Of a stretch of DNA of 64,000 nucleotides, positions 14,391 through 43,374 are shown piece after piece. The notes under the pieces were generated by a model. That model worked only from the letters and a program-made list of their open reading frames with translations. It searched no databases and was not told the DNA's origin. A program made the position numbers and the translations under genes. Origin of the DNA: an uncultured archaeon (lineage in GTDB: Archaea; Thermoproteota; Nitrososphaeria; Nitrososphaerales; Gagatemarchaeaceae); contig CAWCYD010000003.1 of assembly GCA_963799775.1 (NCBI GenBank), positions 1,152,001 through 1,216,000 of the forward strand, read 5' to 3'. Each line of letters opens with the position of its first letter. Position 1 is the stretch's first letter.

Positions 14391-14491
14391 TGGGCCGCCG
14401 GCGACGCAGGGCCTTTAAGAAGGTGATTCGGTCGTTGCAATCCGCCGATGTGCCCTCTTCTCGCTTCTGGGACGCGAGGACTCTGAGCCCG

Positions 14492-15316: not shown

Positions 15317-15328
15317 GGGAGTTTCGAG

Positions 15329-17726: not shown

Positions 17727-18579
17727 TCACCGTTTGGCTAGCGAGGCGAGGTATTCCATGGCCAAGCCGGGGATGTCGATGCCGGTGGCCGGGACCGTGT
17801 TCTTGAACTCTGTCGTGTTGTTCACCTCGTGGCAGACCAACCCCGAGGGAGACTCCATCAGGTCCACTCCTACGAAGTGCCCCTCGACAGCCTTCGCCGC
17901 TTTGCGAGAGATGTCGTCTATCTCCTTTGTTATCTTGCACGGCTCGGCCTTCCCGCCTCTGGCCGTGTTGGTGCGCCAGTCCTCCGCCGAGGTGCGGTAG
18001 ATCGCGGCTATCGTCTTCCCGCCGAGGACGAAGTGCCTGATGTCTCGCGGGGGGCGCTTCACGTATTCCTGGACGTAATAGACGTGGTAGCTCGGGTGCA
18101 TGAACTCCCTGTCCTCGATGATCGCCTTTGCAAAGTCGGGGTGCCTTGAGCTTGGCAGCGAGCCTTCCCCAGCTCCCAACGACCGGTTTCAGGACCGCGG
18201 GGTAGCCCAGGTCCTCCAGCGCTTTGAGCGCGCCTTCTTCGGTGAACGCGACGATGGTCTTGGGCGTTGGGACGCCTGCCTTTGAGAGGGCGAGGCTCCC
18301 GAGGAGCTTGTCGCTGGAGGTTAGCGCCGTGTGGAACGAGTTGATCATCGTGTGACCGAGGTTCTCGAGCAGCGCGGTCGAGTAGATGTTCCTGTAGTGG
18401 CTCACGCACCTCTGGAGGACGAGCTGCTCTTTGATCGGGGACTTTCCGCTCTTGCCGATGGTCAGAGCCATGTCCCTGGAGTCGACCATCGAGAGCTTGA
18501 CGCCCCTCTTCTCGGCCGCCTGCGCGAGTGCTTTCTCTTCCCACCTTATGACATCGTATAGGAGAGCAAGTGAAGCCGT
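17727..18579 (-). CDS. lysX: ATP-grasp LysW ligase (LysX, aminoadipate type); frameshift near 18143; apparent ACG start
   Basis: [48 protein letters not shown]. Confidence 0.9.
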
Positions 18580-22309: not shown

Positions 22310-22726
22310 TCAGTTTATCGTCCTGAGGATTATTGTCGTCTCGGTCTTGAGGATCCCGTCTATCCTCCGGATCTCTTCGACAGACCTGTTGATCTCGGTG
22401 ATGCTCGAGCCTTTGATTATCGCCGCGATGTCGAACGGGCCCGTCGTCTCGTAGATTGTCTCCACCCCCTTTACTGACTTTAGCTTCTTGCTGACGTCCG
22501 CGGTCGGGGCTGTCGGGCTCACGGAGACGTAGGTGATGGCGCTGGTCGCCGTCCGAGGCTCCTCAACCTCAATGGTGAACTTCTTGATGATCCCCTCCTT
22601 CACGAGGTTGGAGACGCGGCGCCTCACCGCCGCCTCTGAGAGGCCGACCTTGGTCGCGATGTCGACGAACGCATGCCTCGAGTCCGTGCGGAGAATCCGG
22701 AGTATCTGCTCGTCGATCTCATCCAC
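22310..22726 (-). CDS. lysM: Lrp/AsnC regulator LysM
   Basis: DEIDEQIL...GLSEAAVRRRV HTH and RAM domain (YETTGPFD); directly after lysJ. Confidence 0.85.
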   Translation of the reverse strand: MDEIDEQILRILRTDSRHAFVDIATKVGLSEAAVRRRVSNLVKEGIIKKFTIEVEEPRTATSAITYVSVSPTAPTADVSKKLKSVKGVETIYETTGPFDIAAIIKGSSITEINRSVEEIRRIDGILKTETTIILRTIN

Positions 22727-23957
22727 TGCTGCCGCCACCGCCGCTAGCCCGTCTCTTCTCCTCGGCAGCGATCGCCTCGCCAAGGATCCGCACCGATCTC
22801 TCGATCTGGCGTTCGGTGATGACGAGAGGCGGGAGCATCCGGAATATCGTTCTCCCCGAGTAGGTGAAGATCACGCCCATGGACATCGCCTCGTTGAGGA
22901 GCTCCTGGATGTCGACCCTCAGCTCAAAGGCGAGCATCAACCCGAGGCCGCGGGCCTCACGAGTTAGCGCGTACTCTTTGCCCATGGAGTTCAGTTTTTC
23001 GAGGAAGAACTTCCCCTTGGCCTTTGCCTGAGCAGGGAGGTCGTTGTCCAAGATGTAACGCAGCGTGGCGGTCCCGGCCGCGCACGCGAGTGGATTGCCG
23101 CCGAAGGTGCTCGTCGCCTCTCCTTTCTTGAGCGAGTCGAGTATCTCGGCCCTCGTGACGGTGGCCCCCAGTGGGACGCCGCCGGCCAGCCCTTTCGCGA
23201 CCGTCATGATGTCCGGGACGACGCCCCAGTTTTCCATGGCCCAGAGCTTCCCTGTCCTGCCGAGGCCCGTCTGGATCTCGTCAGCGATCATGAGGATCCC
23301 CTTCTTGTCGCATATCTCCCTCACTCCTTGAAGGAACCCCTTCTGCGGCAGCACTATCCCGCCCTCTCCCTGGATGGGTTCGACTATGACCGCCCCGATG
23401 TCCTCGTCGACCTCGCGCTCGAGCGCCTCGAGGTTCCCGTTCTCGACGTGCTTGACGCCTTGCAGCAGAGGCTCGAAGGGCTCTCGGTATCTCTTGCTCC
23501 AGGTCGCTGAAAGGGCGCCTGCCGTCTTTCCGTGATAGGCCCCTTTCATTGCGATCAGCCCCTTCTTCCCTGTCACCTTGCGGCCCAGCTTTATCGCGAC
23601 CTCGACCGCTTCGGCGCCGCTGTTGGAGAGGAAGGCCGCGTCGAGACCCTTTGGGGAGCATGAGGTCAGGGTGTCGAGGAACTCTGCGCGCGCGTCGTTG
23701 TAGAGCGAGCCGTGGCAGGTGATCAGCGTCTCCGACTGGCGCTTTATCGCGGCGACGACGGCGGGGTTCGAATGGCCCACTATCGCGACGCCATAACCTC
23801 CCATGCAGTCGATGTATTCGTTCCCCTTGTCGTCCCAGACCAGGGAGCCCCTCCCCCTGACTATCGCCACGGGGAACTTCTGGTAGGTGTGCGGCCCGTG
23901 GGCGTCTTCCGTCGCGATTATGTCAATCGCCTTCTTCTTCATAGCTTTCTTCGGCAT
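22719..23957 (-). CDS. lysJ: [LysW]-aminoadipate/glutamate semialdehyde transaminase (LysJ/ArgD)
   Basis: NSGAEA, EPIQGEGG, DEIQTGLGRTG, AKGLAGG, TFGGNP. Confidence 0.92.
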   Translation of the reverse strand: MPKKAMKKKAIDIIATEDAHGPHTYQKFPVAIVRGRGSLVWDDKGNEYIDCMGGYGVAIVGHSNPAVVAAIKRQSETLITCHGSLYNDARAEFLDTLTSCSPKGLDAAFLSNSGAEAVEVAIKLGRKVTGKKGLIAMKGAYHGKTAGALSATWSKRYREPFEPLLQGVKHVENGNLEALEREVDEDIGAVIVEPIQGEGGIVLPQKGFLQGVREICDKKGILMIADEIQTGLGRTGKLWAMENWGVVPDIMTVAKGLAGGVPLGATVTRAEILDSLKKGEATSTFGGNPLACAAGTATLRYILDNDLPAQAKAKGKFFLEKLNSMGKEYALTREARGLGLMLAFELRVDIQELLNEAMSMGVIFTYSGRTIFRMLPPLVITERQIERSVRILGEAIAAEEKRRASGGGGSSG

Positions 23958-23970
23958 GTTCTAAGTCGAC

Positions 23971-24782
23971 CTAGGCCCTCGACATGACAGTGCAGCCCCT
24001 GTGCATAATGGCGTTAGTCAGTGGCTCCGGGCCGAACCCTGACGCGATTATCGCCTCCCCTACGCCTGCCTCTATCGCCTCCACTCCTGCGAGTATCTTC
24101 TTCTGCATCCCGAAACCCGTCTTCGGGAGCAGCGCCCTCGCCTCTTCGGGCGTGAGCTTCTCGACCACCTTTCCGTCCACCAGGAACCCCTTCACGTCGG
24201 TGAGGAAAAGGACAACGTCTGCGCGCAGCCCCATCGCCATGAACGCGGCTGCTCTGTCAGAGTCTACGTTGAGCGGCTCGGCTTCCTCGCCCATTGCGAC
24301 AGGAGAGATGACCGGCACCACCCCCCTCTCAAGTAGGGCCTCTATGACAGGCACACTCCGGCCGACTGCATCTTGCCTGTATAGCCTCCCTCGATGGCCA
24401 CCTTCCGGCCCCGCTCGTCGACTATGAGCAGCCTCTTCTTCCGGGTGGCCCGGAGTATCCCGCCGTCGAGCCCTGAGAGCGAGACGGCCGTTATCCCTCC
24501 CCGCTCCAGGAGTTCCACTAGCTTCTTCGCGATCAGGCCGCACATGACCATCGTGAAGATCTCCACAGTGGGTCTGTCCGTGTACCTGCTCTTCATCCCA
24601 TCGGGGGAGACGACGAAGCGCTGCTCCTTCCCCAGCTTCGTCGCAATCTCTGTGACCACGTCTCCCCCGCCGTGGACGAGGACCACCTGGTTGGTCTGGA
24701 CCAGCTTCTTGAGGTCTGCCATGAAGTCTGGTGGTATCTCTCCCTTTACGATGTCGCCACCCAGCTTCACCACTGTTCTCAT
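23971..24782 (-). CDS. lysZ: [LysW]-aminoadipate/glutamate kinase (LysZ/ArgB); frameshift near 24355
   Basis: VVKLGG, VHGGG, SRYTD, GGYTGK, LNVDSDRAA. Confidence 0.92.
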
Positions 24783-24788
24783 GCTAGG

Positions 24789-25850
24789 TTACACCGGGTG
24801 GAGCGGAGCGGCTGCGATGCCTTGGGTCTCGTCGAAGCCTAGCATCAAGTTCATCACCTGGACGGCGTTGCCTGCGGCCCCTTTCAGCAGGTTGTCGATC
24901 GCGCCGAGGGCCACGATCCTGTGGCCTCGCTCGTCTATCTCGAAGCCTACGTCGCAAAAGTTGGACCCGATGACGACCTTCGGGTCAGGGAGCCTGAACG
25001 GCCCCTGCTTGTCCTTTATCATGCGGATGAAAGGCTGGCCGGTGTAGAGGCCCCGGTACATCTTCCAGACGTCGGAGTTCTTCACCTCGCCCTCGTAGAA
25101 GACGTGGCACGTCGAGAGTATGCCCCTCACCATGTTTATCGCGTGAGCCGACATCGAGACGGTGACCTTCGAGCCGGAGAGCTGGCCCATGACCTGCTCT
25201 ATCTCGCCGCTGTGTCTGTGGCCAACCGGCTTGTAGGGCCTCACGACCCCGTATCTCTCGGAGAAGTGCGTCGCCAAGGACGGCTTTCCGCCCGAACCTG
25301 AGGACGCGATCTTTGCGTCCACGACAACGTGGTCCTTGTCGATCTTCACGTCCTTCTGCTTGAAGAGAGGGGCGAGCGCCAAGATCGAGGTGATCGCCAT
25401 GCAGCCCGGCGAGGCCGCGAGGCTCGCTCCTCGGATCTCCTCCTTGTTCAGCTCTGGGACGGCGTAGACGAACTTCTCGAGCATCTCCGGTGCAGGATGC
25501 TTGATCCCGTACCAGGTCTCGTAGTCGGCGGGGTTCTTGAGACGAAAGTCGGCGCTGAGGTCGACGACCTTCACCCCCGTCTTGATGAGCTGGGGAAGGA
25601 ACTTCATCGACTCGCCGTGTGGGAGGGCTGTGAATATCACGTCAGCTCCCGGGGAGACCTTCGAGAGGTCGTTCCCGACGAACTGCATCTCCGTCACCCC
25701 TCTCAGGTTGGGGTGCACGCGGAAGAGGTACTCGCCCTGGTGTCTTCTGGAGCTCGCGAAGGCGAGCTCTACCTTCCCGTGGCCCAGCAGGAGGCGGAGG
25801 AGCTCCCCTCCAGCGTAACCTGAGGCTCCCAAGACGCCGACGCGGACCAT
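24789..25850 (-). CDS. lysY: [LysW]-phosphate reductase (LysY/ArgC)
   Basis: GASGYAGGEL, DLSADFR, SPGC, DNLLKGAAG. Confidence 0.93.
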   Translation of the reverse strand: MVRVGVLGASGYAGGELLRLLLGHGKVELAFASSRRHQGEYLFRVHPNLRGVTEMQFVGNDLSKVSPGADVIFTALPHGESMKFLPQLIKTGVKVVDLSADFRLKNPADYETWYGIKHPAPEMLEKFVYAVPELNKEEIRGASLAASPGCMAITSILALAPLFKQKDVKIDKDHVVVDAKIASSGSGGKPSLATHFSERYGVVRPYKPVGHRHSGEIEQVMGQLSGSKVTVSMSAHAINMVRGILSTCHVFYEGEVKNSDVWKMYRGLYTGQPFIRMIKDKQGPFRLPDPKVVIGSNFCDVGFEIDERGHRIVALGAIDNLLKGAAGNAVQVMNLMLGFDETQGIAAAPLHPV

Positions 25851-25853
25851 GCT

Positions 25854-26711
25854 CTATCGCTTCGCCTCCCTCATCACGTACTCTACCATCTTCTTCGCTA
25901 TCCTGTGCTCCGTAGCGGCCTGCGCGCCCTTGAACTCGACCGTGTTGTTGACTTCGTGGATCGTGTAGCCGGTCTCCTTGGATTCCATCGCGTCGACGCC
26001 GAGTATGCCCCCTCCTACCGCCTTAGCCGCGCGGAGCGTGATCTCCTCTATCTCCTTGTTCAGCTTGAAGCCTGTCGTGGTCCCCCCTCTCGCGACGTTC
26101 GTCCTCCATTCTCCCACAGGCGCGTTCCTGTAGACCGACGCGATGACCTCGTCTCCGGCCACTATGAGGCGGATGTCGCGAGGCGGCCTCTTCACGAACT
26201 CCTGGAGGTAATACATGTGCTCGACCGGGCTCTGCATCGACTCCCTGTACTCGACGATCGTCCCCAGGGTCTGCGGCTCCTTTGCGATGTCGACCATCCT
26301 TCCCCAGCTTCCCGTGAAGGGCTTGATCACCACTGGATAACCCAGCTTCTCCGCGGTCTCGAAGACCGATTCAGAGGAGAGGGCGACGAAAGTCTTCGGT
26401 GTCGGGGCACCAGCCTTCGCTAGGAGCATCGATGTGACGAGCTTGTTGCCGCACGCCTCCGAGACCTTGGTCGTGTTTACTACCGTGATCCCGAAGTTCT
26501 CGAGGATCCTCGTCAAGAAGGCGGAGCGGTAGTAGCTGATGCAGCGCTGCAGCACGACGTCCCCGAACCCGTTGGCCAGCCTCTTCGCAGTGACGTTGAA
26601 GGCGAGCTTCCTCACGTCGATGAGCTCTGTCTTGCATCCTGCCTTCTCGGCCTCCTTCTTCAGCTCCTTCTCCTCGAGCCGAAGTCTGTCGAATGTAATC
26701 GAGAGCTTCAA
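25854..26711 (-). CDS. argX: ATP-grasp LysW ligase paralog (probably ArgX, glutamate type)
   Basis: QRCISYYR, GSWGR, WRTNVARG, HEVNNTVEFKG; next to argH. Confidence 0.85.
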   Translation of the reverse strand: MKLSITFDRLRLEEKELKKEAEKAGCKTELIDVRKLAFNVTAKRLANGFGDVVLQRCISYYRSAFLTRILENFGITVVNTTKVSEACGNKLVTSMLLAKAGAPTPKTFVALSSESVFETAEKLGYPVVIKPFTGSWGRMVDIAKEPQTLGTIVEYRESMQSPVEHMYYLQEFVKRPPRDIRLIVAGDEVIASVYRNAPVGEWRTNVARGGTTTGFKLNKEIEEITLRAAKAVGGGILGVDAMESKETGYTIHEVNNTVEFKGAQAATEHRIAKKMVEYVMREAKR

Positions 26712-26718
26712 GGCCCTG

Positions 26719-26892
26719 TCACTCTCCCCAGTCTTCCTCGGCGACCTCTGCCGGCTTGAGCTTGACCTCTCCCTTGGAGATCGACTCGACTTCGTAATCG
26801 GAACCGCACTCCTTGCACTTTACAATCTCCCCGACTATGGCGTCATCTGGGACGTTGATGTCGGCGTCGCATTCTTCGCACTTTGTCTTCAT
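26719..26892 (-). CDS. lysW: Amino-group carrier protein LysW/ArgW (copy 2), 57 aa
   Basis: MKTKCEEC...CKECG...EEDWGE; absent from ORF track. Confidence 0.93.
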   Translation of the reverse strand: MKTKCEECDADINVPDDAIVGEIVKCKECGSDYEVESISKGEVKLKPAEVAEEDWGE

Positions 26893-26895
26893 TTG

Positions 26896-28386
26896 CTAGC
26901 TTCTCACCTCTCGTTTCAGGTACGAGCGGAATTCGCCACGAAGGACCCTGGCAGATTCATCTAGCCTGTCCTCTTTCTCTCTGAGCCAGACGCTTAGGTT
27001 TTCCAATTCTTTCTTGTTCTGCACGACTTGCCGTGGGTTGAACTTTGGGTTCGCTCCGCCTGCGCTTCCGATAAGCATCAGGGTTTTGAGTGCATCGAGC
27101 ACCGCCCGGAGACGCGCTTTATCAATCTTTATCGCTCGGCTCGTCACCTTGGCTGAAACCTCGGCCAACGACGCCGTCGCAGCCTCTTCGAGGCTCGAGT
27201 GGTTCTCTATCGCCATTCGGACCAGCTCGCCGACAATCTGATGGGCCTGGCGGAACGAGACGCCATGGGCGCGGACCAGCTCGTTCGCGAGCTCCGTCGC
27301 GGTCGACATGTCCTCCTCGACAGCTTGCTTGAGCCGCGAGGCGTTGAACTTCACGGACGAGAGCATGTCCGCCATCAACGACAGGGATGACTCGCAATCG
27401 TCGAGCGCCTTCCAAAGATGCGGTGTGATCTCCTGGAGGTCGAGGTTGTAGGCATTGGGAAGCGCTTTCGCTATGGCGAAAGCGGCGGTGGCCTCGCCCA
27501 TCACGGAGCCGCACTTGGCCCTGATCGTCTCCGCCACGACCGGGTTCTTCTTTTGCGGCATTATGCTGCTCGTGGCGCTGAACTCGTCCCCAAGCTCGAG
27601 GAAGGCGAACTCACTTGACGACCAGAGGATGAGTTCCTCGGCGATCTTGCTAAGATCCACCATCGTGATCTCCAAGACCGCCAGCGTCTCGAGCGCAAAG
27701 GCACGAGACGATACGGCGAGCATCGAGTTTGAGACCAGTCCGTCGAAACCGAGCAGTGAAGCAATCCGCTCCCTGTCGATATTGAAGGACGTGCCCGCGA
27801 ACGCCGCCGACCCCATCGGAGACCGGTTGACCCTGTCGTAGAGCTGGGAGAACCGCTCAGTGTCCTCCGCTATCGCCTCGAAGTGAGACTGCATGTGGTG
27901 GAACACGGTTGTAGGCTGGGCGCGCTGCAGGTGCGTGTACCCTGGAATCGGTAGCGCGCCGGATCGGCCCATCACGTGAAGTAGGGCTGACTCTAGTCGC
28001 GTCGCCTGACCTTGTATCTTCAGCACCCTCTCCCTCACCTCCATCCTTAGGGCAGTCGCGACCTGGTCGTTGCGGCTCTTCCCCAGGTTGAGGTAACCTG
28101 CTGCCTCGATCCCGATCGAGGCCGTCGCCTTCTGCTCCAGCCAGTGATGGACGTCCTCGGTCGAGGGGTCTATCTTCGGGTTGGCGGGGAGGCCTTCCAG
28201 GAAGCGGAGGCATGCGATACCCTCCTTCTTCGGGACTTGGCCTGACCGTAGCAGCCACGACATGTGCGCCAGGTTTATCGCGACCACGTGCCGGCTCAGC
28301 GGACCGTCGAAAGCGACCGAGGACGTGAAGTCGTTGGCCTTTCTACTTGAGCGCTTGACTCTGCTTCCTCTCAGGATGTTGTCCAT
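26896..28386 (-). CDS. argH: Argininosuccinate lyase
   Basis: GKSRNDQV, PGYTHLQRAQP, SSIMPQKKNP. Confidence 0.96.
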   Translation of the reverse strand: MDNILRGSRVKRSSRKANDFTSSVAFDGPLSRHVVAINLAHMSWLLRSGQVPKKEGIACLRFLEGLPANPKIDPSTEDVHHWLEQKATASIGIEAAGYLNLGKSRNDQVATALRMEVRERVLKIQGQATRLESALLHVMGRSGALPIPGYTHLQRAQPTTVFHHMQSHFEAIAEDTERFSQLYDRVNRSPMGSAAFAGTSFNIDRERIASLLGFDGLVSNSMLAVSSRAFALETLAVLEITMVDLSKIAEELILWSSSEFAFLELGDEFSATSSIMPQKKNPVVAETIRAKCGSVMGEATAAFAIAKALPNAYNLDLQEITPHLWKALDDCESSLSLMADMLSSVKFNASRLKQAVEEDMSTATELANELVRAHGVSFRQAHQIVGELVRMAIENHSSLEEAATASLAEVSAKVTSRAIKIDKARLRAVLDALKTLMLIGSAGGANPKFNPRQVVQNKKELENLSVWLREKEDRLDESARVLRGEFRSYLKREVRS

Positions 28387-29606
28387 GGTAGCTCCATCTT
28401 GTTCTTCTCGCCTTTCAGGCTAGCAATAGCGTTGGCAGCTGTCCGTGACTGGAGGCCCCAGAGTTCGATGAACCCCACCGATGAGTTCTGGTCAAATGTC
28501 GACTCTTTCGAGTAGGTGGAGAGCTTCAGGCGATAAAGGGAGTTCGGCGAGGAGCGCCCGACTACCCTCATCGACCCCCGATGGAACTTCAGTCTGACCA
28601 CTCCGGTCACCCTGCGCTGCGTCGTCTCGATGAAGCTGTCCAGGGCGGTGCGGAGCGGCTCCATCCACAGTCCCGAGTAGACGAGCCAGGACCATTCTTT
28701 CTCGACCGAGGCCTTGAACGCGAGCTCGTTTCTTGTCAGGACCAGCTGCTCGAGATCCCTGTGCGCCTCGATGATCGCAAGGGCGGCAGGGCATTCGTAG
28801 ACCTCGCGCGACTTTATCCCGACTAGCCGGTCCTCGATCATGTCGACTATCCCGAACGAGTGGTTCCCCGCGATCTCGTTGACCTGCTGGATCAACTCGA
28901 TCCCGTCCAGCCTTCGACCGTTCAGGGAGACCGGGATGCCACCGTGGAACCCTATCTCGAGATACGTGGGCGAGCCTGGTGCGGAGTCGACGGGAGAGAC
29001 CCACTCGAACGCATCCTGGGGTGGCTCCGTCGCTGGGTCCTCGAGAGGCCCGCTCTCAATGGACCTCCCCCAGAGGTTCTGGTCGGTGCTGAAGATGGAT
29101 TTCTTGGGCTTGACGTTGATGCCGTGCTTCTTCGCATATTCCATCTCCTTGTCTCTGCTCATGTTCCACTCCCTCACCGGAGCGACGACCTTGATGCCCG
29201 GGTTCAACGAGCGGACCGTCACGTCCATCCTGACCTGGTCGTTGCCCTTTCCCGTGCAGCCGTGCGCGACGGCGGTGGCGCCCTCTCTCTCGGCCACCTC
29301 GACGAGCTTCGTCGCGATGAGGGGCCGTCCCAAGGCGGTCGCCAGCGGATACCTGCCCTCGTACATCCCGTTTGCCTTTATCGAAGGGAAGACGTAGTCG
29401 TCGACGAACTCCTTCCGCGCGTCCATCTGGAAGTGCTTGATGGCTCCCGTCGAGTGGGCCCTCTCTGCTATCTCGCGGAAGTCTTCTCTCTGTCCGAGGT
29501 TGAGCGTAAGCGTGATGACGTCAGCGTCGAACTTCTCCTGCAGCCACTTGATCGATACGGAGGTGTCGAGCCCGCCCGAGTAGGCCAACACTATCTTCTG
29601 CTTCAA
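28371..29606 (-). CDS. argG: Argininosuccinate synthase
   Basis: AYSGGLDTS, HGCTGKGNDQ, GIKSREVYE; TTG start at 29606. Confidence 0.96.
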   Translation of the reverse strand: MKQKIVLAYSGGLDTSVSIKWLQEKFDADVITLTLNLGQREDFREIAERAHSTGAIKHFQMDARKEFVDDYVFPSIKANGMYEGRYPLATALGRPLIATKLVEVAEREGATAVAHGCTGKGNDQVRMDVTVRSLNPGIKVVAPVREWNMSRDKEMEYAKKHGINVKPKKSIFSTDQNLWGRSIESGPLEDPATEPPQDAFEWVSPVDSAPGSPTYLEIGFHGGIPVSLNGRRLDGIELIQQVNEIAGNHSFGIVDMIEDRLVGIKSREVYECPAALAIIEAHRDLEQLVLTRNELAFKASVEKEWSWLVYSGLWMEPLRTALDSFIETTQRRVTGVVRLKFHRGSMRVVGRSSPNSLYRLKLSTYSKESTFDQNSSVGFIELWGLQSRTAANAIASLKGEKNKMELPWTTS

Positions 29607-29646
29607 TGATGTTTTTTCTGGCCGCCCTGAAATCCTTTTATAGATT

Positions 29647-30375
29647 TTGGCCAGCAACGTCCCAAAACTGGAGGCTCTTGACACGAAATTGGTCACGCCT
29701 GGCGCGATAATCGCTGCGGTAAGGGACGAGATCAGCTACGACCTCTCGATACAGGACGCGCTGGCCCGCGACTACGCCAACGTCAGCGCCATATCGAGGA
29801 TGCTGCAGCCAAGGATCAAAGAGAGGCTGGGAAAGGACGTCAACGTCGAGAGCATCATCACGTCTCTCAAGAGGCTGAAGGGCAGCTACTCTCCTGCCTC
29901 GGGGGAGATCCGTGCGATAATCGCTGACAGCGTCGTGAACGTGAGGACCAACGTCTCCAAGATCTCGGTGGAGAAGACAAGGAAGACTCTCGAGGCCGTC
30001 AGCACGCTCATTGCCACCCACCAGCAGGGTTTCCTTCACGTCTCGGAGAGCATCTCGAACATAACTCTCATCTTCGACCAGAAGCTGCACAAGAAGGTGA
30101 GGAGCAAGCTGTCGGATTCCGCGATACTCGAGGAGGGCGACGACTACGCGGCCATAATCGTGCAGAGCCCGATAGAGATCACCAACACCCCTGGCTGCCT
30201 CATCAACTTCTACAACCAGATCGCGAGGAGACACGTGAACATCGAGGACACCGTGAGCTGCCACACAGACACAATCATCGTCGTCAAGATGAAGGAGGTC
30301 GGAAAGGCGTTCACGGCCCTCACAGACCTCATCTCCGAGGAGCGGAAGGCCATCGAGGAGAAAAGTCACGCATGA
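29647..30375 (+). CDS. Archaeal HTH-like + double-ACT-domain protein, candidate amino-acid-responsive regulator
   Basis: DYANVSAISR N-terminal domain; TPGCL...VNIEDTVSCHTD ACT pattern; divergent from argG, upstream of carA; start may be 29668 or 29689. Confidence 0.75.
   Translation: MASNVPKLEALDTKLVTPGAIIAAVRDEISYDLSIQDALARDYANVSAISRMLQPRIKERLGKDVNVESIITSLKRLKGSYSPASGEIRAIIADSVVNVRTNVSKISVEKTRKTLEAVSTLIATHQQGFLHVSESISNITLIFDQKLHKKVRSKLSDSAILEEGDDYAAIIVQSPIEITNTPGCLINFYNQIARRHVNIEDTVSCHTDTIIVVKMKEVGKAFTALTDLISEERKAIEEKSHA
29679..29695. promoter_or_regulatory. Candidate operator TGACACGAAATTGGTCA
   Basis: TGAC-N9-GTCA pseudo-palindrome; 13/17 identical to 30406-30422. Confidence 0.4.
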
Positions 30376-30434: not shown

Positions 30435-30470
30435 AAGGAACAGCGGAACTTTTTTTCTTTAAGAGACGTG

Positions 30471-31649
30471 ATGGAAAAAGCGGAAGGGAGCGGCCCCGCA
30501 ATACTGCTTCTTGAAGACGGGACCGTCTTCTTCGGGAAGGGGTTCGGCGCCGAGGCGACGGTGGTCGGCGAGCTGGTGTTCAACACGGGGATGGTCGGCT
30601 ATCCGGAATCCATGACCGACCCGTCCTATTCGGGTCAGGTGCTCTCCTTCACGTATCCGTTGATAGGGAACTACGGCGTCCCGAACAGCAAGGAGAAGGA
30701 CGTCTACGGACTGCCAAGGCGCTTCGAGTCGGACGGGATCAAGGTGACAGGGATCGTCGTGCAGGAATACTGCCAGAGACCGAACCACTGGACCTCTGTC
30801 CAGACCCTCTCAAGGTGGATGGCCGACCAGGGAGTTCCGGGGATAGAGGGCGTCGACACGAGGGCGCTGGTCACCACGATAAGGGAGCGGGGCGTGATGA
30901 TGTGCGCGCTTGGGACTGGGCCAGAGATCGCGAGCAAGAGGGAGCTCAAGCGGCTCCTGGAGAAGGCGGCGAGATACGACTCTGTGGACTACGTGAGACG
31001 GGTCTCCGTGAAGAAGCCTGAGAGATTCGGCGTCTCGGAGAAGAGGGTGGTGCTCATCGACTGCGGGGTAAAGGAGAGCATCGTCAGGAACGTGCTCGGC
31101 CGCGGCTACTCCGTGGTCAGGATGCCGTTCGACTCGTCGTATGCCGACGTCATGCAGGATGACCCCGCCGGAGTCGTTGTGTCCAACGGGCCTGGCGACC
31201 CGCGCCTGTGCGTCGAGACCGTGAAGACGACCTCGAGGCTCGTCGACTCGGAGGTCCCTGTGCTGGGGATCTGCCTTGGCGAGCAAATACTGGGGATGTC
31301 CCAGGGGGCCGAGACTTACAAGCTGAAGTACGGTCATCGCGGTCAGAACAAGCCGGTCGTAGACGTCATCACTCGGAGGGGCTTCGTTACGAGCCAGAAC
31401 CACGGTTACGCCGTCGACCCCAGGACGCTCGCAAAGACAGAGCTCACGCCGTGGTTCATCAACGCCGACGACCATAGCGTCGAAGGCTTGGTGCACGGGA
31501 CCAAGCCGGCGATAGCCGTCCAGTTCCACCCTGAGGCGACACCGGGGCCTTACGATACCGAGTTCGTGTTCGACAGGTTCGTCGAGTTGATGTCTTCAGG
31601 CAAGAGGAAGAGCGTGGTAGGTGAGAGAGTTCGAAGCATGAGGGCGTGA
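30471..31649 (+). CDS. carA: Carbamoyl-phosphate synthase small subunit
   Basis: GELVFNTGMVGY, SNGPGDP, GICLG, SQNHG, QFHPE. Confidence 0.96.
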   Translation: MEKAEGSGPAILLLEDGTVFFGKGFGAEATVVGELVFNTGMVGYPESMTDPSYSGQVLSFTYPLIGNYGVPNSKEKDVYGLPRRFESDGIKVTGIVVQEYCQRPNHWTSVQTLSRWMADQGVPGIEGVDTRALVTTIRERGVMMCALGTGPEIASKRELKRLLEKAARYDSVDYVRRVSVKKPERFGVSEKRVVLIDCGVKESIVRNVLGRGYSVVRMPFDSSYADVMQDDPAGVVVSNGPGDPRLCVETVKTTSRLVDSEVPVLGICLGEQILGMSQGAETYKLKYGHRGQNKPVVDVITRRGFVTSQNHGYAVDPRTLAKTELTPWFINADDHSVEGLVHGTKPAIAVQFHPEATPGPYDTEFVFDRFVELMSSGKRKSVVGERVRSMRA

Positions 31650-34600
31650 AGAAGGCCCTAGTCCTCGGCAGTGGGGCGATAAAGATCGGAGAAGCAGGCG
31701 AGAGCCGCTAAGCGGCCGCAAATTCGACTACTCCGGTAGCCAATGCCTCAAGGCGCTGAGGGAAGAGGGGATCAGGTCGATACTGGTCAACCCGAACATC
31801 GCGACGATTCAGACGGACTCGAGGATGGCGGACAAGATCCACTTCCTCCCCGTCAATCCTGAGTTCGTCACCGACGTCATAGAGAAGGAGAGGCCCGACG
31901 CGGTCCTCCTCGGCTTCGGGGGACAGACCGCGCTCAACTGCGGGGTCGCACTATCCAGGTCGGGTGCGCTCACGAAGTATGGCGTGAAGGTGCTGGGCAC
32001 CCAGATTCACGGGATCGAGATAACCGAGGACAGGGAGCTCTTCAAGGAGACGATGCAGGAGATAGGCGTCGCCTGCCCCAAGAGCAGCCCTGCGTACTCG
32101 CTTGAGGATGCCCGCTCGACCGTGAAGGGGCTGGGCTTCCCCGTGATAATGCGCGTGGCCTACACCCTGGGCGGGAGGGGAGGAGGCGTTGCGAGGAACC
32201 TGAAGGAGCTGGACGAGATAGTGCAGAGAGGTCTGAACCTGAGCATGGCGCACCAGGTTCTGATCGAGGAGTACATCGGCCACTGGAAGCAGATCGAGTA
32301 TGAGGTGATGCGGGACGCCGAGGACAACGGGCAGATAGTCTGCAACATGGAGAACGTCCTCAGCATGAGGGTGCACACAGGGGACAACATCGTCGTGGCG
32401 CCCTCGCAGACGATATCGAACCGCGAGTATCACATGCTGGTGTCCTTGTCGCTCAAGGCGGCGAGGAGGTGCGGAATCGTCGGCGAGTGCAACATGCAGT
32501 TCGCGCTCGAGCCCAGCTCCGAGACATACCGCGCGATAGAGATCAACGCACGGCTCTCGATGTGCCTCGGCGCTCGCATCGAAGGCCACAGGGTACCCCA
32601 TCGCGTACATCGCCGCGAAGATCTGCCTCGGCTACTCGCTCACGGAGCTGAAGAACAAGATGACAGGGATAACGACGGCGATGTTCGAGCCCTCGCTCGA
32701 CTACGTCGTGGTGAAGATGCCGAGGTGGGACACGAAGAAGTTCGAGGGGGCGTCGCGCGGGATAGGGACGGCCATGAAGTCGATAGGCGAGGTCATGGCA
32801 ATCGGGCGGGGGTTCGAGGAGGCGGTGCAGAAGGCCGCGAGGATGCTCAACATCAGATACGACGGCGTGATCCGGCGGTTCCTCGAGGAGGACGACCTCG
32901 AGCTCTTGAAGGCCAGGCTGAGGAACCCGACCGACCAGATAATCTTCGACGTCGTCGAGGCGCTGATGGTCGGGATCCCTGAGGACGAGGTGGCGAGGCT
33001 GAGCGTCATCGACCCCTGGTTCGTCAGGAAGCTGAAGAACATCGTCGACTCGTATCGCAGGATAGAGAAGAGCGGACGCGAGGGGGTCGACCGGGACCCG
33101 GAGGTGCTCCTGGACGCCAAGCGCATGGGCTTCTCGGACAAGCAGGTCGCCAACGCCGTCGAGATAGACGAGGACGACGTCCGGGCGATGCGAGAGAGGA
33201 TGGAGATCAAGCCGCATGTCAAGGCCATCGACACGCTCGCGGCAGAGTGGCCCGCTCGCACGAACTACCTCTACGTGACCTACAACGCGTCCACCGACGA
33301 CGCGCCGCCGAGCGACAAGAGGAAGGTGATCGTCCTGGGGCAGGCCCCTACAGGATAGGGAGCTCCGTCGAGTTCGACTGGGGGACAATGAACATGGCGT
33401 GGGCCCTCAAGGAGAGCGGGCAGGTCGACGAGATCGTCGTCGTGAACTGCAACCCGGAGACGGTCTCCACCGACTTCGACCTGAGCGACAGGCTCTACTT
33501 CGAGGAGCTCACAGTCGAGCGCATGCTCTCGATCTACGAGAGGGAGAGGCCCTTGGGCGTGGTCCTATGCGTAGGAGGGCAGATACCCAACGACCTCGCT
33601 CTGGAGCTCGACCAGAAGGGGGTCAACGTATTGGGGACGAGCGCCGACTCCATCGAGAAGGCGGAGGACAGGGAGAGGTTCAGCTTCCTGCTGGACAGGA
33701 TAGGCATCCCGCAGCCCCAGTGGGGGAGCTTCAGGTCGATGAAGCAGGCGAGGGAGTTCTGCGACAAGGTGGGGTACCCCGTGATCGTCAGGCCGTCGCA
33801 CGTCCTGAGCGGCTCCGCGATGAGGGTGATCTGGGGCAGCAGGGAGCTCGAGAGCTTCCTCGCAAAGGCCGCGGAGGTCAACCCCAACTATCCGGTGACC
33901 GTCTCAAAGTTCTTCGAGAACGCGAAGGAGATAGAGGTCGACGGCGTCTCTGACGGAGAGACGACGGTCATCGGCGCGATCATGGAGCACGTGCAGAAGG
34001 CGGGAGTCCATTCCGGGGACGCGATTATGACGATCCCCACCGTCTCGATCAGCGAGGTCGCGAAGGGGAAGATCCGCGAGTACACGAGGGCGATAGCGAA
34101 GGAGCTCGAGGTGAAGGGGCCGTTCAACATCCAATATCTCTGCGTCAAAGACGAGGTCCAGGTGATAGAGTGCAACCTGAGGGCGTCCAGGTCTCTCCCG
34201 TTCGTCTCAAAGGCGACGGGGACGAACCTCATCAAGCTGGCCGCCACCGTCATCCTCGGGGGGAAGCTGGAGGGGATGCGGGACGTCCCAGAGCCCACCC
34301 AGTTCGCGGTCAAGGCCCCGCAGTTCTCGTTCATGCAGATGGAGGGCGCCGAGCCCACCGTCGGGGTGGAGATGAGGTCCACAGGAGAGGTCGCCTGCTT
34401 CGGCAAGACGCTCGCCGAGGCGATGAGCAGGGCCTTGATCGCTTCAGGACTGAGGATCCCCGCGAGAGGGGAGAGGGGGATAATCCTCGCCGACGAGAAC
34501 TCCGAGCTGGAAGAGGCGAAGGCCCTCGTCAAAGACTTCAAGGAAGCGGGGATCGAGTTCGTGACCACCGAGTCCCTGGCCAAGCCTCTGGGCGACGCCG

Positions 34601-34813
34601 CCAAGGTCGCGAGCCTCGACTCGATGCTCGAGATGATAGGAGCGGGCAAGGTGGCGATAGTGCTCTCCCTCAACACGAACCTCAACAAGGTGAGGAAAGA
34701 TCTACAAGGTGAGGAGAAAGGCGGTGGAGCTTCAGGTGCCGTTCCTAACGACCGTGGAGGAGGGCCGCGCAGTCCTTCTCTGCGTAAAGTCGCCCTTGAA
34801 GGCCCTGAGCTAG
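31646..34813 (+). CDS. carB: Carbamoyl-phosphate synthase large subunit; 20-nt insertion at 31703-31722; small frameshifts near 32563, 33340 and 34702
   Basis: VLGSGAIKIGEAGE|FDYSGSQ, NPNIATIQT, GPYRIGSSVEFDW, EMRSTGEV; GTG overlaps carA stop. Confidence 0.95.
31703..31722 (+). other. Candidate bulge-helix-bulge/loop intron in carB mRNA
   Basis: AGCCGCTAAGCGGCCGCAAA; removal restores GAG TTC (E-F) and the frame; both cut sites fall after the second nt of 3-nt bulges. Confidence 0.7.
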
Positions 34814-36107: not shown

Positions 36108-37086
36108 TCAGGCCTTCCTGCCGGCCTCTCCCTTGAGCGCCGCGAGCTCGGCGAGGAGGGCCGTCAGCTGGACCTCCGGGTTCGCGCCCATCGCGAGCCG
36201 ATAGTCGTACTCGGCCAGGATCTTGATCGCCTCGGCGGTCCTTCCGCTCTTCCCCTTCACTATCTCCTCGTTGGCGAAACGGAGGAAGTCGGACTCTGCG
36301 ATTCCGTAGACCCTCGTGAGCTCGACCAGCTTGAGCCGCGCTGCGGAGAAGTCTCCTCCCAGAGCGAGGTCGACTATCTCGGCGGCCCTCTCCTTGACCG
36401 TCGACCCGGTCGCCGCGTTCACCCTCTCTATCGTCACCTCTCCCCCTCCTGCGGACGCCGCCTGGAGCAGGTTGATCGCCTGCCTGAGGTCTCCGTCGAC
36501 GGCGATGCTCACGGCCTGCATGGACCTTCTCCGTGACCTTGATCTCCTCGGCCTTTGCTATCTTCTTGAGCCGGGCCGTCACCTCCTCTTCTCCTATCTT
36601 CTTGAACCGGAATATTGCGCACCGGCTCTGGATCGCCTCGATAAGGTTCGAAGAGTAGTTGCAGATCAGCACGAAGCGCGTGTACCGCGAGGTCTCCTCC
36701 ATTATCCGCCGGAGCGCCGTCTGCGCGTCCCTGGTCATCTCGTCTGCCTCGTCCAGGATGACGAGCCTGAAGGGGACTCCCTCGCTCAGGTTCGAGTAGC
36801 TCGCGAACGTCTTGATCCTCTCCCTCACAGTGTCTATTCCCCTCTCGTCGCTCGCGTTGAGTTGGAGAGAGTACTCGCCCACGAGGTCTCCGAGGAGCTC
36901 CCTCGCCAGGACCAGGGCGGTCGTGGTCTTGCCCGAGCCCGGTGGACCCGCGAAGAGCAGGTGTGGTAGCTCGTCCCTGTTCTGGAGGAGGGGCTTCAGA
37001 CGCGCCTTGACCTCTTCCTGGTTGACGACGTCGTCGAGCTTCCGCGGTCTAAACTTCTCTACCCACATGAGGGACTCTAGGGACAT
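36108..37086 (-). CDS. rfcS: Replication factor C small subunit; frameshift near 36522
   Basis: WVEKFRP, GPPGSGKT, LNASDERG, DEAD, SRC motifs. Confidence 0.95.
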
Positions 37087-37284
37087 GAGGACGCTATGCA
37101 CCGATGATTTGTTGGTTACGGATAGCAGCCGTGGGTTTCGTCATCTCTGGCGAGTGACGCACGGGATGGTTTTGAGTATATATCCATGCGGACAGGTCTT
37201 TGGGTTCGGTCGACCTAATGGGGACGATGTGCGTTCTTGCTCGACATGTTTATTACGATTGATGACCAAAAATCCCGATTAGCA

Positions 37285-39096: not shown

Positions 39097-39663
39097 GTGT
39101 TTCTCTTGGATGACCCCGGGACGGATGTGGCGAGGATGTTCGAGCAACGTGAGAGGGAGTTCTTGATCGCACCGGTCGGGGTCATGATGAAGAGCTCGAT
39201 AGAGCAGATGGAGGTGGGCGACCTCGTGCTCGCGAAGGCCAAAGAGGGGGAGAGAGTAGAGCTCCCCAGGTGGGTCGCCGAAGAGCTCGTCGAATCAGGG
39301 ATTGCCGAGCTTCAAGAGGAGCCTTTCGACGTCGAGATATTCAAGGCGCTCACCAGAGAGAAGATGCTGGCTTCCCCGCAGCTCTCGCCGCTCGCGCCCA
39401 GCTTCTACGTCAGGATGCGTCGGAGGCTCGCGGTCATCAAGGCGGGCGTCGAGAAAGGCAAGTACAGGCGCGAGGACTATGAGAAGCTCAGGATGGCGAG
39501 CTACGACCTCATCGGAAGGAGGCTCAGCAAGCTCCTGTCCATCAGCTCGTCGACGAGCGTCAAGACGATAACGGACAGGATAACGCCGGAGGAGAAGGCC
39601 TTCTTCACGGTCTCCAGCTCGATCTCGGCGGCGTGGAAGACGGCGCTTCTGGGAGACCAGTAG
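39097..39663 (+). CDS. GINS subunit (Gins23 type)
   Basis: ELPRWVAEEL B-domain, FY..RR...RLSKL, TPEE; directly upstream of mcm. Confidence 0.85.
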   Translation: MFLLDDPGTDVARMFEQREREFLIAPVGVMMKSSIEQMEVGDLVLAKAKEGERVELPRWVAEELVESGIAELQEEPFDVEIFKALTREKMLASPQLSPLAPSFYVRMRRRLAVIKAGVEKGKYRREDYEKLRMASYDLIGRRLSKLLSISSSTSVKTITDRITPEEKAFFTVSSSISAAWKTALLGDQ

Positions 39664-39686
39664 GAAAGAGGATCAGGGACCGCACC

Positions 39687-42600
39687 ATGGCTGTCTTGTC
39701 AAGAGGGCTGTCAGAGCGTTTCGAAGAGTTCCTCCGCGGGTTCGAGGACAAGGATGGGGAAAGGAAGTATCAGGTCATCCTTGCCCAGCTCGCGGCCTCC
39801 GGCAGGAAGTCCGTCCTGATCAAGTACGATGACCTGATCCACTCCGACACGGACCTTGCCGAGAGCCTCCTCAACGACCCGGACAGGGCGCTCAAGGAGT
39901 TCAAGTCGGCGACCTTCGACGGTTCATGAGCACCGAGAATCCGGCCTACGCAGGCGAGATCCGCGAGAGCCTCACGGTGAGGATACGCGGGATCACCGAC
40001 AGGATTCCTCTGCGAAAGGTGGACACCTCCCACCTGGACAAGATGATCGCGTTCTCCGGGATGGTGACGCGGACGTCAGAGCTCAGGCCGCTCCTCGTCG
40101 ATGCCGCTTTCGTCTGCCCGGACGGGCACACGACGAGGGTCCCTCCAATCTGGCCCGAGCATAAAGAAACCTGCGAAGTGCGAAGGCTGTGACGAGACTA
40201 GGAACCTGGAGCTGGATCAGAAGGAGAGCAGCTTCATCGACAGCCAGATACTGAGGGTGCAGGAGCTCCCCGAAGAACTCCCGCCAGGGCAGCTCCCGCG
40301 CTTCTTCGACATCGACGTCGAGGGGGACATCGTGAACCAGGCCAGACCCGGGGACCGCGCGATCATGACCGGGATAGTGCGCGCAGAGCCAGACTTCTCG
40401 TTGGGCCAGCCCAAGAGCAGGTCGTTCAGGTCGAAGATCGACGCAAACGACATCGAGGTGGTCGGGAAGGAGCCCAGTCAGGTGCAGATAACCAAGGAAG
40501 ACGAGGCGATAATCAAGAGCATCGCAGCAGGGGAAGACGCATACAGGAAGCTGACCCGTTCGATGGCGCCCGGGATACTGGGGCATGAGGAGGTCAAGGA
40601 GGCCATCCTCCTTCTCTTGGTGGGAGGTCCGCAGACGGTCCTCCCCGACGGGACGAAGCTCAGGGGGGACATCAACATCTTCCTCGTCGGAGACCCGGGA
40701 GTCGCGAAGTCTGAGATGCTAAAGTTCGCGGCAAGCGTCGCGCCGAGAGGGATGTTCGCATCGGGGAGGGGCTCGACGGCGGCGGGCCTCTCAGCCGCTG
40801 TCATCAGAGAGAAGAACACGCTCATGCTCGAGGCGGGTGTCGTCGTGCTGGCAGACCAGGGGATCGCATGCATCGACGAGTTCGACAAGATGAAGGCGGA
40901 GGACAGGAGCGCCCTCCACGAGCAGATGGAGCAGCAATCCTACCACCCGTCTACGGAGATTCTGCTGTCCAGCGGCAAGGCGAAGATAGGCGACTATGTG
41001 GAAGAGGCGATCCGCTCGCACCCCGAGAGGACCGAGCAGGGTAAGGACTGCGAAGTCGTCAGTGTCAGCCCTTCGGAGAGGATCTTCTCGACCGACCTTG
41101 GCACCGGGAAGATAGAGAAGACTGCCATCGCAAACCTAAGCAGGCATCGGGCGCCGGACCGTTTCATCAGGGTCACGTTCTCCAATGGGAGGTCGGTTGT
41201 GGTGACGCCAGAGCATCCCATCTTCGTCTACCATGAAGGCGTGTCGACCGTCGCAGCCGAGAGGCTGCGGGTGGGAGCGTTCGTGCCTGGCCCGACCCAC
41301 ATACCGAACTCCTCGGCGCCAGTCGCCCTGGCTTCCGTCACCCGCTCCAAGTTGTCAAAGGAGATCGTCCAACCTAGCACCCTGACGCTTGGGATTGCGA
41401 GGATACTCGGGTATCTAATCACCGAGGGCAACTTCTATGTTGGTTCGTCCGTCGAAGTCGATTTCACAAACCTGGACGAGAGGCTGCTTAACGAGATGAC
41501 GACCCTGATGCGGGAGGAGTTCGGCCTCGAGCCAACGATCAGAATGTCTGAACAAAGACGGGCGGGTCTAAGGTACAGCTCGACCACGTTCCACGCTTGG
41601 ATGAGCGAGAACTTCCCCGAGATGGTGTCCAAGGCCAGGAGCAAGAGGGCGCCTGAGAAGATCATTGGCGGTTCGGTCGCTCACATCAACGAGTTCCTGA
41701 CTTCTGCGTTCCTCGGCGACGGCGGTGTCGAGACCGAGGCAGTCTGCTACCGCACAGCATCCCGTGGTCTGGCGGAGGACTACCAAGACCTTCTGCTCAA
41801 ACTGGCGATCGCATCCAGGATAGACGTCGACACGTCCAACGACTCCTTCAAGGTGTACATATGCGGGGACTCGCTGGGTGAGTTCCTTGAAAGAGTGGTG
41901 GACCGGATGGACCACAGACGAGCGAAGATCCAGAGGCTCGTCGAACGCAGCGAGGGGAAGAACAGAATCCACGACGTGCTTCCGACGGGCGTGGCGAAGA
42001 CCCTCGTCCAGCTCCTTGACGACGCAGGAATGAGCTACGACGGGTACTTCTGGAGACACCTCAGGTCAGGGAGCGGAATAACCAAACCCACGGTGGAGCG
42101 ACTCCTGGGTCGGATAGAGGAGAAACGTCGGAGCGTCCTGTCGCTCTTGCCCGGGAAGGGTACTGTGAAAGAGTTGCGTGCTGCCGCGGGCTGGTCACAG
42201 GAACGGCTTGCAAGAGAATGCGGAGTGAAGAGGGGAGCAATAGACTATGCAGAGCGCGGAGGGTATGGAAAGGAGGAACTTGGCGAGCTTGTCGAGACGG
42301 TCAGGAGCGCCATCCGCGAGAGTTTCGCATCAATAGGCGGGACTACGGAATTCATCAGAGGCCTGATTGGCCTGCGCTTCCTGAGGGTGGTCAAGGTGGA
42401 CACCGTGCTCAACGAGGGAGCGGCAAAGACAGAATGGGTTTACGACGTCACGGTAGAGCCCCGGCACAACTTCGTGTCGGCGGGAGTTGTCCTTCACAAC
42501 ACGGTGACGATAGCAAAGGCAGGGATCTACGCCACGCTGAACGCAAGGACGGCCATCCTGGCCGCGACCAACCCCGTGTTGGGCAAGTACAACCCGTACC

Positions 42601-43302
42601 AGAACCTGATAGACAACATCACGCTCCCGATCCCTCTGCTGACGAGGTTCGACCTGATCTTCGTGCTCAGGGACACGCCGACGGCTGCGCAGGACGAGAA
42701 GCTCGCCACGCACATACTGGACGTCCACAGGAAGAGGAGCCTACGTCGAGGCCCCTCCCATCCACTTTGAGCTCCTGAAGAAGTACATCGCCTATGCGAA
42801 GAACTTCTCGCCAGTCCTCACCATCGAGGCGGAGAACAGGATAAAGGAGTACTACCTCCAGCTGAGGAGGAGCGTCACCGAGGGACAGATAGGCGCGACG
42901 CCCAGGACGCTAGAGTCCCTGATACGCCTGGCGAGCGCGAAGGCTAGGCTCATGCTCAGGGAGCAAGTACTCGAGGAAGACGTCCACACAGCGATTTCCC
43001 TGATGAACAAGATGGTCGAGGATGTACTGACCGACACCGCGACGAATACGAAGGGAGACTTTGGGATACTGCTCGGCAAGCCCGCAGGCGAGAGGACCAA
43101 GTCGGAGTCGGTGATGAACGTCCTCAGGCAGCTCGAGGGCCCCGACAAGAAGCCCGTCGAACTGGGGGTGCTGAAGCAGGAGCTCATGAGGTCCAACAAG
43201 TTCGCAAACGAGGACGAGCTGAACAAGTTGCTCCAAAAGATGACAAAGGAAGGCATAACCTACGAGCCGAAGCCTGGATACATCAGACGCGTCCAGGGCT
43301 AG
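39687..43302 (+). CDS. mcm: Replicative helicase MCM with intein; frameshifts near 39922, 40141 and 42740
   Basis: GDPGVAKS, IDEFDKM, MEQQ|TVTIAKAG, LLTRFD, TPRTLESLIR. Confidence 0.96.
40938..42500 (+). mobile_element. Intein (521 aa) with LAGLIDADG homing endonuclease and XRE-type HTH insertion
   Basis: Starts SYHPSTEI, block B TPEHP, LGYLITEG and AFLGDG, ends VYDVTV..HNF...VLHN followed by Thr. Confidence 0.93.
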
Positions 43303-43374
43303 CGGCAAAGGGAACGGGCCGAGAGGTGACCGGGGCACGGCGCGTGGATTAGGGGAGAGCGGGGCCGGCTCGCC

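Follow-up and report, generated by a model that had tools for sequence, protein, structure and literature searches.

A probable tRNA-type intron in the carbamoyl-phosphate synthase gene carB of Nitrososphaerales

The carB locus and same-site inserts in relatives

The window analysed here comprises 64,000 nucleotides (nt) of an uncultured archaeon of the Gagatemarchaeaceae (Thermoproteota; Nitrososphaeria; Nitrososphaerales; GenBank assembly GCA_963799775.1, contig CAWCYD010000003.1, positions 1,152,001 to 1,216,000 of the forward strand). It carries the carbamoyl-phosphate synthase genes carA and carB on its + strand, and the carB frame is interrupted close to its start by a 20-nt insert that is most probably a tRNA-type intron of the bulge-helix-bulge (BHB) class. 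The open reading frame of carA, encoding the glutamine amidotransferase subunit, occupied 30468–31649 (Pfam CPSase_sm_chain, 3.6e-50; GATase, 2.2e-46). Its stop codon (31647–31649) is overlapped by carB, which starts with GTG at 31646. Exon 1 of carB, 19 codons in length (MKKALVLGSGAIKIGEAGE; 31646–31702), was in frame in all aligned relatives. After 31702 the frame reads SR followed by an in-frame TAA (31709–31711), and FDYSGSQCLK picks up in a different frame at 31723, where exon 2 begins (31723–34813, delimited by its frames and by alignments to relatives; three small insertions or deletions, hereafter indels, are present in the assembly). The intervening 20 nt (AGCCGCUAAGCGGCCGCAAA; 31703–31722) were assigned to an intron based on same-site inserts, covariation and RNA contigs of a relative. 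Their excision yielded GE|FDYSG in frame. Both the interruption and the frame-restoring deletion had been proposed in a sequence-only reading of the window; translation bore them out, and all coordinates of that reading were correct when the sequence was read again. Excision of 20 nt moved 1 or 2 nt leftward also yielded GEFD, so the register at the protein level is less unique than was first claimed.

In the exon 2 frame, the match to the Pfam preATP-grasp profile did not begin until position 19 of its 118 positions, leaving approximately 18 missing, and the domains CPSase_L_D1, D2 and D3 were scattered across three open frames of exon 2. The spliced joint predicted for this genome is GCAGGCGAG|UUCGACUAC (also written GCAGGCGAG|TTCGACTAC), and the peptide predicted across the junction is ...IGEAGEFDYSGSQ... 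(...IGEAGE|FDYSG...). The 20-mer was single-copy in the 2.47-Mb genome and its 13–15-nt cores also occurred once, which ruled out a repeat or mobile element. A search of the genome revealed no second carB, the only hits being self-matches and internal-duplication matches at 28–31% identity.

A protein search whose query was residues 1–278 of exon 2 recovered carB from 41 of 41 related genomes, and the downstream open frame measured approximately 1034–1037 amino acids (aa) in relatives vs. 446 aa in this genome. The insertion site was examined in 30 loci from this search and in 60 loci chosen from an order-wide search, in which 354 of 401 genomes matched. Two of the 90 loci fetched fell short of the site, and among the 88 readable ones a single locus (L053) was judged continuous by eye. 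An insert was found precisely between GGNGAR and TTYGAY in 60 of the 88 loci and none in the remaining 28, fractions that describe a non-random sample, as the added 60 loci were hand-picked to cover families and genera. The inserts were 17–33 nt long, most often 21 nt. All 60 inserts blocked translation, through a frameshift in 26 cases and an in-frame stop in 56, each insert having at least one of these. The same-site inserts that the sequence-only reading had proposed to look for were thus present, with covarying stems as set out below.

The insert was present in 27 loci of family f1 and missing from four, the genome's own genus counting 16 with and none without it. Exclusively insert-bearing loci were seen in families f2, f3, f8 and f10 (one each), f4 (six) and f15 (12); f12 (10 with, two without) and f13 (one with, two without) were mixed; and only insert-free loci were seen in f5, f6, f11, f16 and f18 (one each), f7, f9 and f19 (three each) and f14 (six). 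Named genome records gave 80 loci, and the insert was found in 70 of the 79 readable ones, although many of these records correspond to genomes of the 88-locus set and are not independent of it. Insert-bearing named records included Candidatus Nitrosotenuis chungbukensis MY2, a Cenarchaeum metagenome-assembled genome (MAG), many Nitrososphaera and Nitrososphaeraceae MAGs, and a record of Candidatus Gagatemarchaeum stordalenia (82% identical), the tree row of which was the same as that of a same-genus genome.

Folded motif and conserved exon positions

On the + strand, the insert and its flanks were predicted to fold into three helices. The exon-1 strand AUCGGAG (31685–31691) and the exon-2 strand CUCCGGU (31731–31737) would form a distal outer helix of 7 bp, supported by covariation, RNAalifold and fixed synonymous sites. 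Exonic GGCG (31697–31700) was paired with intronic CGCA (31717–31720) in the 4-bp central helix H, the intronic strand being supported by covariation. The intronic hairpin h' (31704–31716) consists of GCCGC, a UAA loop containing the stop codon, and GCGGC. A 3-nt 5' bulge, A-G-A (31701–31703), is closed on its intron side by this 5-bp hairpin, and A-A-U (31721–31723) lies at the 3' site, which is closed by the distal 7-bp helix. The minimum-energy fold included the 5-bp hairpin, three of the four central pairs and the outer helix. In BHB introns, cleavage follows the second bulge base on both sides; cuts placed by this rule in silico gave GE|FDYSG in frame.

Of the BHB structure originally put forward, the helices, the hairpin and the cut positions stood, whereas the 3' 'bulge' proved to have no adjacent exonic helix, leaving a relaxed form. 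The motif is accordingly best described, as predicted from sequence, as HBh'-like: a canonical 5' half and a 3' cut inside an internal loop with a distal exon-exon helix. The central helix comprised three Watson-Crick pairs plus a G.A in this genome. The mismatch had been taken as part of the motif; it is present here but represents a minority state, since only 15 of 56 distinct sequences were unpaired at that position and most had G-C or G-U. Among the 60 inserts, the last four letters before the final two intron bases were CGCC (26), CGCA (18), CGCT (9), CGTC (4), CACC (2) and CACT (1).

Covariation was assessed in a 78-column alignment of the 60 sites that carry the intron, adjoining exon sequence included, in which 56 distinct sequences were scored. 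The proposed pairs were formed in 94.3% of cells vs. 86.3 ± 0.5% in shuffles, a value that none of 500 shuffles reached, although the aligned sequences are kin and shuffle counts therefore exaggerate independence. Sliding the 3' partners lowered pairing to 23–51%, and the covariation score was 0.300 vs. 0.151. The inner helix was 95.3% paired, with both sides changing in four of its five pairs and stems as different as GCCGC/GCGGC, GCUGG/CCAGC, GUCUC/GAGAC, GUCAC/GUGAC and GUUAG/CUAAC. The central helix was 93.3% paired across the 56 distinct sequences, with U-A in place of C-G in three, and the outer helix was 94.1% paired. RNAalifold independently yielded the same three helices. For the predicted structure, the controls with slid partners and the diversity of stem sequences argue more strongly than the shuffles do.

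A second signature was found in the synonymous positions of the exons. Third bases were nearly fixed in intron-bearing genes at one Ile codon (C, 57 of 60), a Gly codon (A, 58 of 60), a second Gly codon (C, 55 of 60), a Tyr codon (C, i.e., TAC, 60 of 60) and a Ser codon (C, i.e., TCC, 52 of 60), and these are exactly the exon positions within the outer and central helices. The same positions were near-maximally variable in the 27 intron-less genes tallied, where the second Gly was spread nearly evenly over all four bases. Synonymous positions outside the helices showed similar variability in both sets of genes.

RNA of a relative, encoded enzymes and distribution

Direct evidence for excision was obtained from a relative of family f15 with a closed genome (G173), in which the order-wide search matched a single carB (locus L094) with a predicted 33-nt intron at 1448–1480. 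The L094 stretch was contained in 20 RNA runs from five studies, and four runs from four studies were examined. The joint 1447→1481 was present in contigs of three RNA-seq studies that are independent of each other; it left out 33 nt (ends AG..AA), had zero positional ambiguity and coincided with the positions predicted from the bulges. In run X1 a 59-nt joined contig reached a depth of 1869 vs. 155 for a 92-nt unspliced contig (approximately 12:1). The joint was also spanned by a 2270-nt contig at a depth of 166.7 in run X9 and by a 3222-nt contig at a depth of 274.8 in run X15, which carries a second organism label. The homologous intron was thus excised exactly in the RNA of this relative, and a spliced joint of the kind for which the sequence-only reading had called was found there in three studies at the predicted positions. 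In the raw-read run X22, depth over L094 1306–1645 was zero. Its coverage of L094:1000–2000 was block-like: reads started and ended at fixed points, adapters were read through and a 'goes back 110' joint (1842→1733) appeared, a pattern more suggestive of a library of low complexity or with duplication than of a biological signal.

The enzymes expected for such splicing were found in the genome under study. The catalytic domain of the splicing endonuclease EndA (PF01974) was detected in two separate genes, at 92.2 and 79.1 bits, encoding 187 and 201 aa, respectively. The best solved matches of the first were 2cv8_A, 3p1z_B, 3ajv_B and 2zyz_B, and the second was a divergent paralogue also matching 3iey_B; we take these structures to be two-subunit enzymes of Crenarchaeota and nanoarchaea. 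Because two EndA-domain genes are present, the splicing endonuclease of this archaeon is likely of the two-subunit type. The RNA-splicing ligase gene rtcB (open frame 12417–13928, − strand; Pfam match PF01139 at 12417–13730, 574 bits) adjoins an archease gene (13932–14414, − strand; PF01951, 3.2e-34). This pair (12417–14414) lies approximately 17 kb upstream of carB, and both frames seem intact. ARAGORN in its intron mode flagged 25 of 37 tRNA genes as intron-bearing, of which about a dozen were plausible (9–64 nt) and many implausible (200–2000 nt), giving a hint of tRNA introns in this genome.

The distribution of the intron was followed with R1, a covariance model built from the alignment described above. 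Its sole match in this genome was carB, at 87.3 bits, a score equal to that of any relative. Across the class, a sample of 151 genomes gave 55 intron-type matches (64–71 nt, at least 67.7 bits; one from genome G283) and 41 intron-less matches (45 nt, 21–38 bits), and 55 genomes had no match. In genus g32 of family f12, nine of 33 genomes were of the intron type and the other 24 intron-less, a polymorphism that suggests recent precise losses, or gains. In a sample of the phylum, 131 genomes from other orders yielded no intron-type match, which is weak evidence of absence as the model is tuned to these exons. The sole intron-type match outside the order was located in G438 (C32:4700–5100, locus L210), a genome placed in a different order of the class, with a 23-nt intron and a new compensatory stem, GCCGG/CCGGC. 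The CarB of G438 was 69% identical to that of the genome studied here vs. 44–54% for seven of its order-mates; because it is so much closer to ours than those of its order-mates are, transfer or a mis-binned contig appears a more likely source of this intron than greater age.

A CarB tree (built quickly under LG+G4 from 278 columns and rooted at the midpoint) contained 107 rows, 93 with the intron and 14 without. At least eight state changes were required, and well-supported branches enforced five of these. Rows lacking the intron were placed within intron-bearing clades named Nitrosotenuis and Nitrososphaera, and intron sequences tracked the clades. This pattern is in keeping with vertical inheritance and repeated precise losses, although the unrooted count leaves the direction of gain and loss unproven. 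The intron is, on this evidence, apparently old within carB of the Nitrososphaerales type and was precisely lost several times.

Two further observations concern the neighbourhood of carAB and of the broken genes treated below. An arginine-biosynthesis cluster (22722–29735, − strand) stands back to back with carAB (30468–34813, + strand) and comprises a class-III aminotransferase, an amino-acid kinase, a semialdehyde dehydrogenase, a LysX/ArgX-like ATP-grasp protein, argininosuccinate lyase and argininosuccinate synthase. The P-loop domain of MCM (40068–42767, + strand) is broken by a LAGLIDADG_3 intein (Pfam Intein_splicing, 9.2e-14; LAGLIDADG_3, 1.6e-16).

Explanations of the insert and known systems

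The insert at 31703–31722 is in our view a genuine tRNA-type intron in the carB pre-mRNA, with a probability of roughly 0.88. On the basis of the insert and its conservation, the covarying structure, the enzyme genes and the exact excision of the homologous intron in a relative's RNA, we infer the following course of events in this genome itself. Exonic GGCG and intronic CGCA would pair to form the 4-bp central helix, and the two-subunit endonuclease would cleave at both sites: on the 5' side after the second base of the 3-nt bulge (A-G|A), beside the 5-bp intronic hairpin, and on the 3' side after A-A|U, within the internal loop shut by the distal 7-bp AUCGGAG/CUCCGGU helix. The exon-exon helix may keep the two halves of the mRNA together until RtcB and archease, as the presumed acting ligase system, join them into a message for an intact CarB N-terminus (...IGEAGE|FDYSG...).

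Several points weigh against this reading. A strict hBHBh' motif, as defined in a footnote within the excerpt of PMC7714728 consulted, has an exonic helix h with at least two Watson-Crick pairs directly closing the 3' bulge; here at most one A-U pair adjoins the central helix after A-A-U, and the central helix has the G.A as its outer pair. The fold energy was unremarkable (−20.7 kcal/mol, z = −1.87, equalled by 12 of 200 shuffles). Since this z is not significant, fold energy was dropped as evidence, and the case for a more-than-chance structure is made by the comparative and RNA data rather than by thermodynamics. Splicing was seen in a single relative of another family (f15) and is a prediction for this genome and its genus, and the joined form is known from RNA contigs. 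The role of EndA as the cutting nuclease is putative. To these are added the kinship of the aligned sequences, the hand-picking of loci and three further frame breaks in this carB copy, breaks that might reflect decay in this genome.

Such decay would mean that the intron family is real while carB of this genome is a pseudogene with three true mutations. The lesions had correctly been given as 1–2 nt: relative to relatives, carB has an extra base near 32564 (+1, with a mismatch at 32561), is one base short (−1) in the G run 33337–33340 and two bases short (−2) between 34700 and 34701. That all three are missing from the aligned relatives (the first two compared with four relatives shown of seven searched, the third with two of two) speaks for decay, as does the lack of a second carB in a genome that is 81.67% complete. 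However, comparable breaks affected indispensable genes of the same window. When 68 coding-like open frames were scanned against Pfam, MCM was spread over four frames, FttA/aCPSF1 over three, and the RFC small subunit and a Hel308-like helicase over two each, and Pfam matches were truncated for three more enzymes (a PALP enzyme, a RimK-like ligase and an amino-acid kinase). These broken genes lay at 2–1878 (−), 36111–37140 (−), 39483–43299 (+) and 43330–45521 (+), and at 15317–16018, 17730–18188 and 24345–24788, giving a density of approximately one break per 5 kb. The three contigs and the 81.67% marker completeness suit an indel-prone assembly. Because MCM, FttA and RFC are similarly broken and a cell cannot lose all of them, the 1–2-nt breaks in carB are very probably assembly indels rather than decay. 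With exons and intron motif otherwise intact and a match to R1 at 87.3 bits, a pseudogene is improbable.

Removal of the insert by some other RNase or by a self-cleaving fold would agree with the non-canonical 3' site and with a role of EndA that is deduced from gene content and motif. What is conserved nevertheless corresponds to a substrate of EndA, namely a helix of 4 bp, a 5' bulge of 3 nt and cleavage behind the second base of the bulge on both sides, and the RNA junction of the relative fell on the positions set by the EndA rule. No Rfam family matched at E ≤ 1 across 31500–31900, and a hairpin of 17–33 nt is, to our knowledge, below the size of any ribozyme class. Two-subunit endonucleases, moreover, tolerate relaxed motifs in non-tRNA contexts, according to the portion of PMC2738675 consulted, and we regard a different nuclease or self-cleavage as very improbable. 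Translational bypass, in which ribosomes hop a hairpin in unspliced RNA as in phage T4 gene 60, draws superficial support from a stop codon in or near the hairpin soon after Gly-Glu codons, which resembles a take-off site. The insert was physically missing from the relative's RNA contigs, however, its length varied from 17 to 33 nt, and none of the 60 inserts ended in GAR and so offered a landing codon matching the last codon of exon 1; the chance of bypass is accordingly minute. A cloning or adapter remnant, or an assembly error, had been considered because of the NotI site GCGGCCGC, and the assembly is indeed rich in indels. This site nonetheless proved to be the 3' stem strand followed by the central-helix strand, it recurred in independent assemblies of the genus, and it is one of 125 NotI sites in this 59% G+C genome. 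Homologous inserts also occupied this site in 59 further loci, which come from separate genomes, and in 70 of the 79 readable named records, so that an artefact is hardly conceivable.

As to why a tRNA-type intron was kept, it might be a selected checkpoint, maintained for long across most Nitrososphaerales, ammonia oxidisers among them, that ties the synthesis of carbamoyl-phosphate synthase to the splicing endonuclease and to RtcB-archease. We consider this doubtful. If it were true, the supply of arginine and pyrimidines would be coupled to the state of RNA processing or RNA repair, a coupling of arginine and pyrimidine synthesis to splicing capacity being also a speculation of the sequence-only reading, and the frozen exon-exon helix would be a built-in clamp that lets the mRNA survive being cut. 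As an alternative origin, the intron may be the leftover 'immunity' half of an ancient homing-endonuclease cassette. No LAGLIDADG gene was found between carA and carB in the 28 loci with upstream DNA, in all of which carA abuts carB: the end of the carA alignment was 76–163 nt from FDYSG in 27 loci, and in the remaining one the gap was 488 nt, with the carA alignment ending 132 residues early.

Should the intron reading hold, tRNA-type splicing is required for a central metabolic gene in the majority of members sampled from an abundant order, among them records that bear the names Nitrosotenuis, Cenarchaeum and Nitrososphaera. carB is probably mis-annotated in hundreds of genomes as truncated, as a pseudogene or with a wrong start. 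Archaeal mRNA splicing also becomes testable in organisms that are seemingly in culture. How an mRNA may be held together between cleavage and ligation can be modelled concretely on the frozen exon-exon helix, and the state changes on the CarB tree, at least eight in number, offer a natural system for the study of intron loss.

The sequence-only reading had recognised no described carB intron, and full-text literature searches, which leave subscription journals largely outside, likewise found none, nor any mRNA intron of Thaumarchaeota/Nitrososphaerota. BHB introns in crenarchaeal cbf5 pre-mRNA have reportedly been described by Watanabe in 2002, Yoshinari in 2006 and Yokobori in 2009. In the cbf5 introns, relaxed BHB motifs are common at exon-intron borders and are tied to a hetero-oligomeric endonuclease, and the distribution is patchy, with gains or losses, as stated in an excerpt of PMC2738675; Table 1 in that excerpt lists zero cbf5 introns for Cenarchaeum symbiosum and Nitrosopumilus maritimus. 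The carB intron shares with that of cbf5 the relaxed motif, a link (putative for carB) to a hetero-oligomeric endonuclease and the patchy distribution. It differs in that its host encodes a metabolic rather than an RNA-modification enzyme, in its occurrence in Nitrososphaerales, and in a 3' site that lies under a distal exon-exon helix with frozen synonymous sites.

The mRNA of HVO_1309 in Haloferax volcanii holds a BHB intron in its 5' untranslated region, the case of cbf5 being the only one reported earlier according to the part of PMC7714728 consulted. A splicing-endonuclease substrate within an mRNA is common to both systems, if carB is indeed cut by EndA. The HVO_1309 intron lies in an untranslated leader, whereas that of carB interrupts coding sequence and its splicing is needed for the protein. 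Introns of tRNA and rRNA are the only ones mentioned in the excerpt of PMC3082918. The canonical hBHBh' introns of pre-tRNA and pre-rRNA have in common with the carB intron the 4-bp central helix, the 3-nt bulge and, presumably, processing by EndA and RtcB/archease. Unlike these, the carB intron has an mRNA host, no tRNA body to hold the halves, an internal loop at the 3' site and a tiny size (17–33 nt).

In the eukaryotic XBP1/HAC1 system, IRE1 cuts and RtcB ligates in a regulated stress switch. As with carB, the non-spliceosomal removal of a tiny intron from coding sequence restores or alters the frame, and a ligase of the RtcB family is likely involved in both; a part in XBP-1 splicing is ascribed to RtcB in the abstract of PMC8718801. 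The putative nuclease of carB is EndA rather than IRE1, and regulation as a stress switch is a feature of XBP1/HAC1. Set beside these systems, the carB intron, with a comparative signature of unusual clarity and the excision seen in RNA of a relative, is most probably an archaeal tRNA-type pre-mRNA intron in a new gene and a new lineage.

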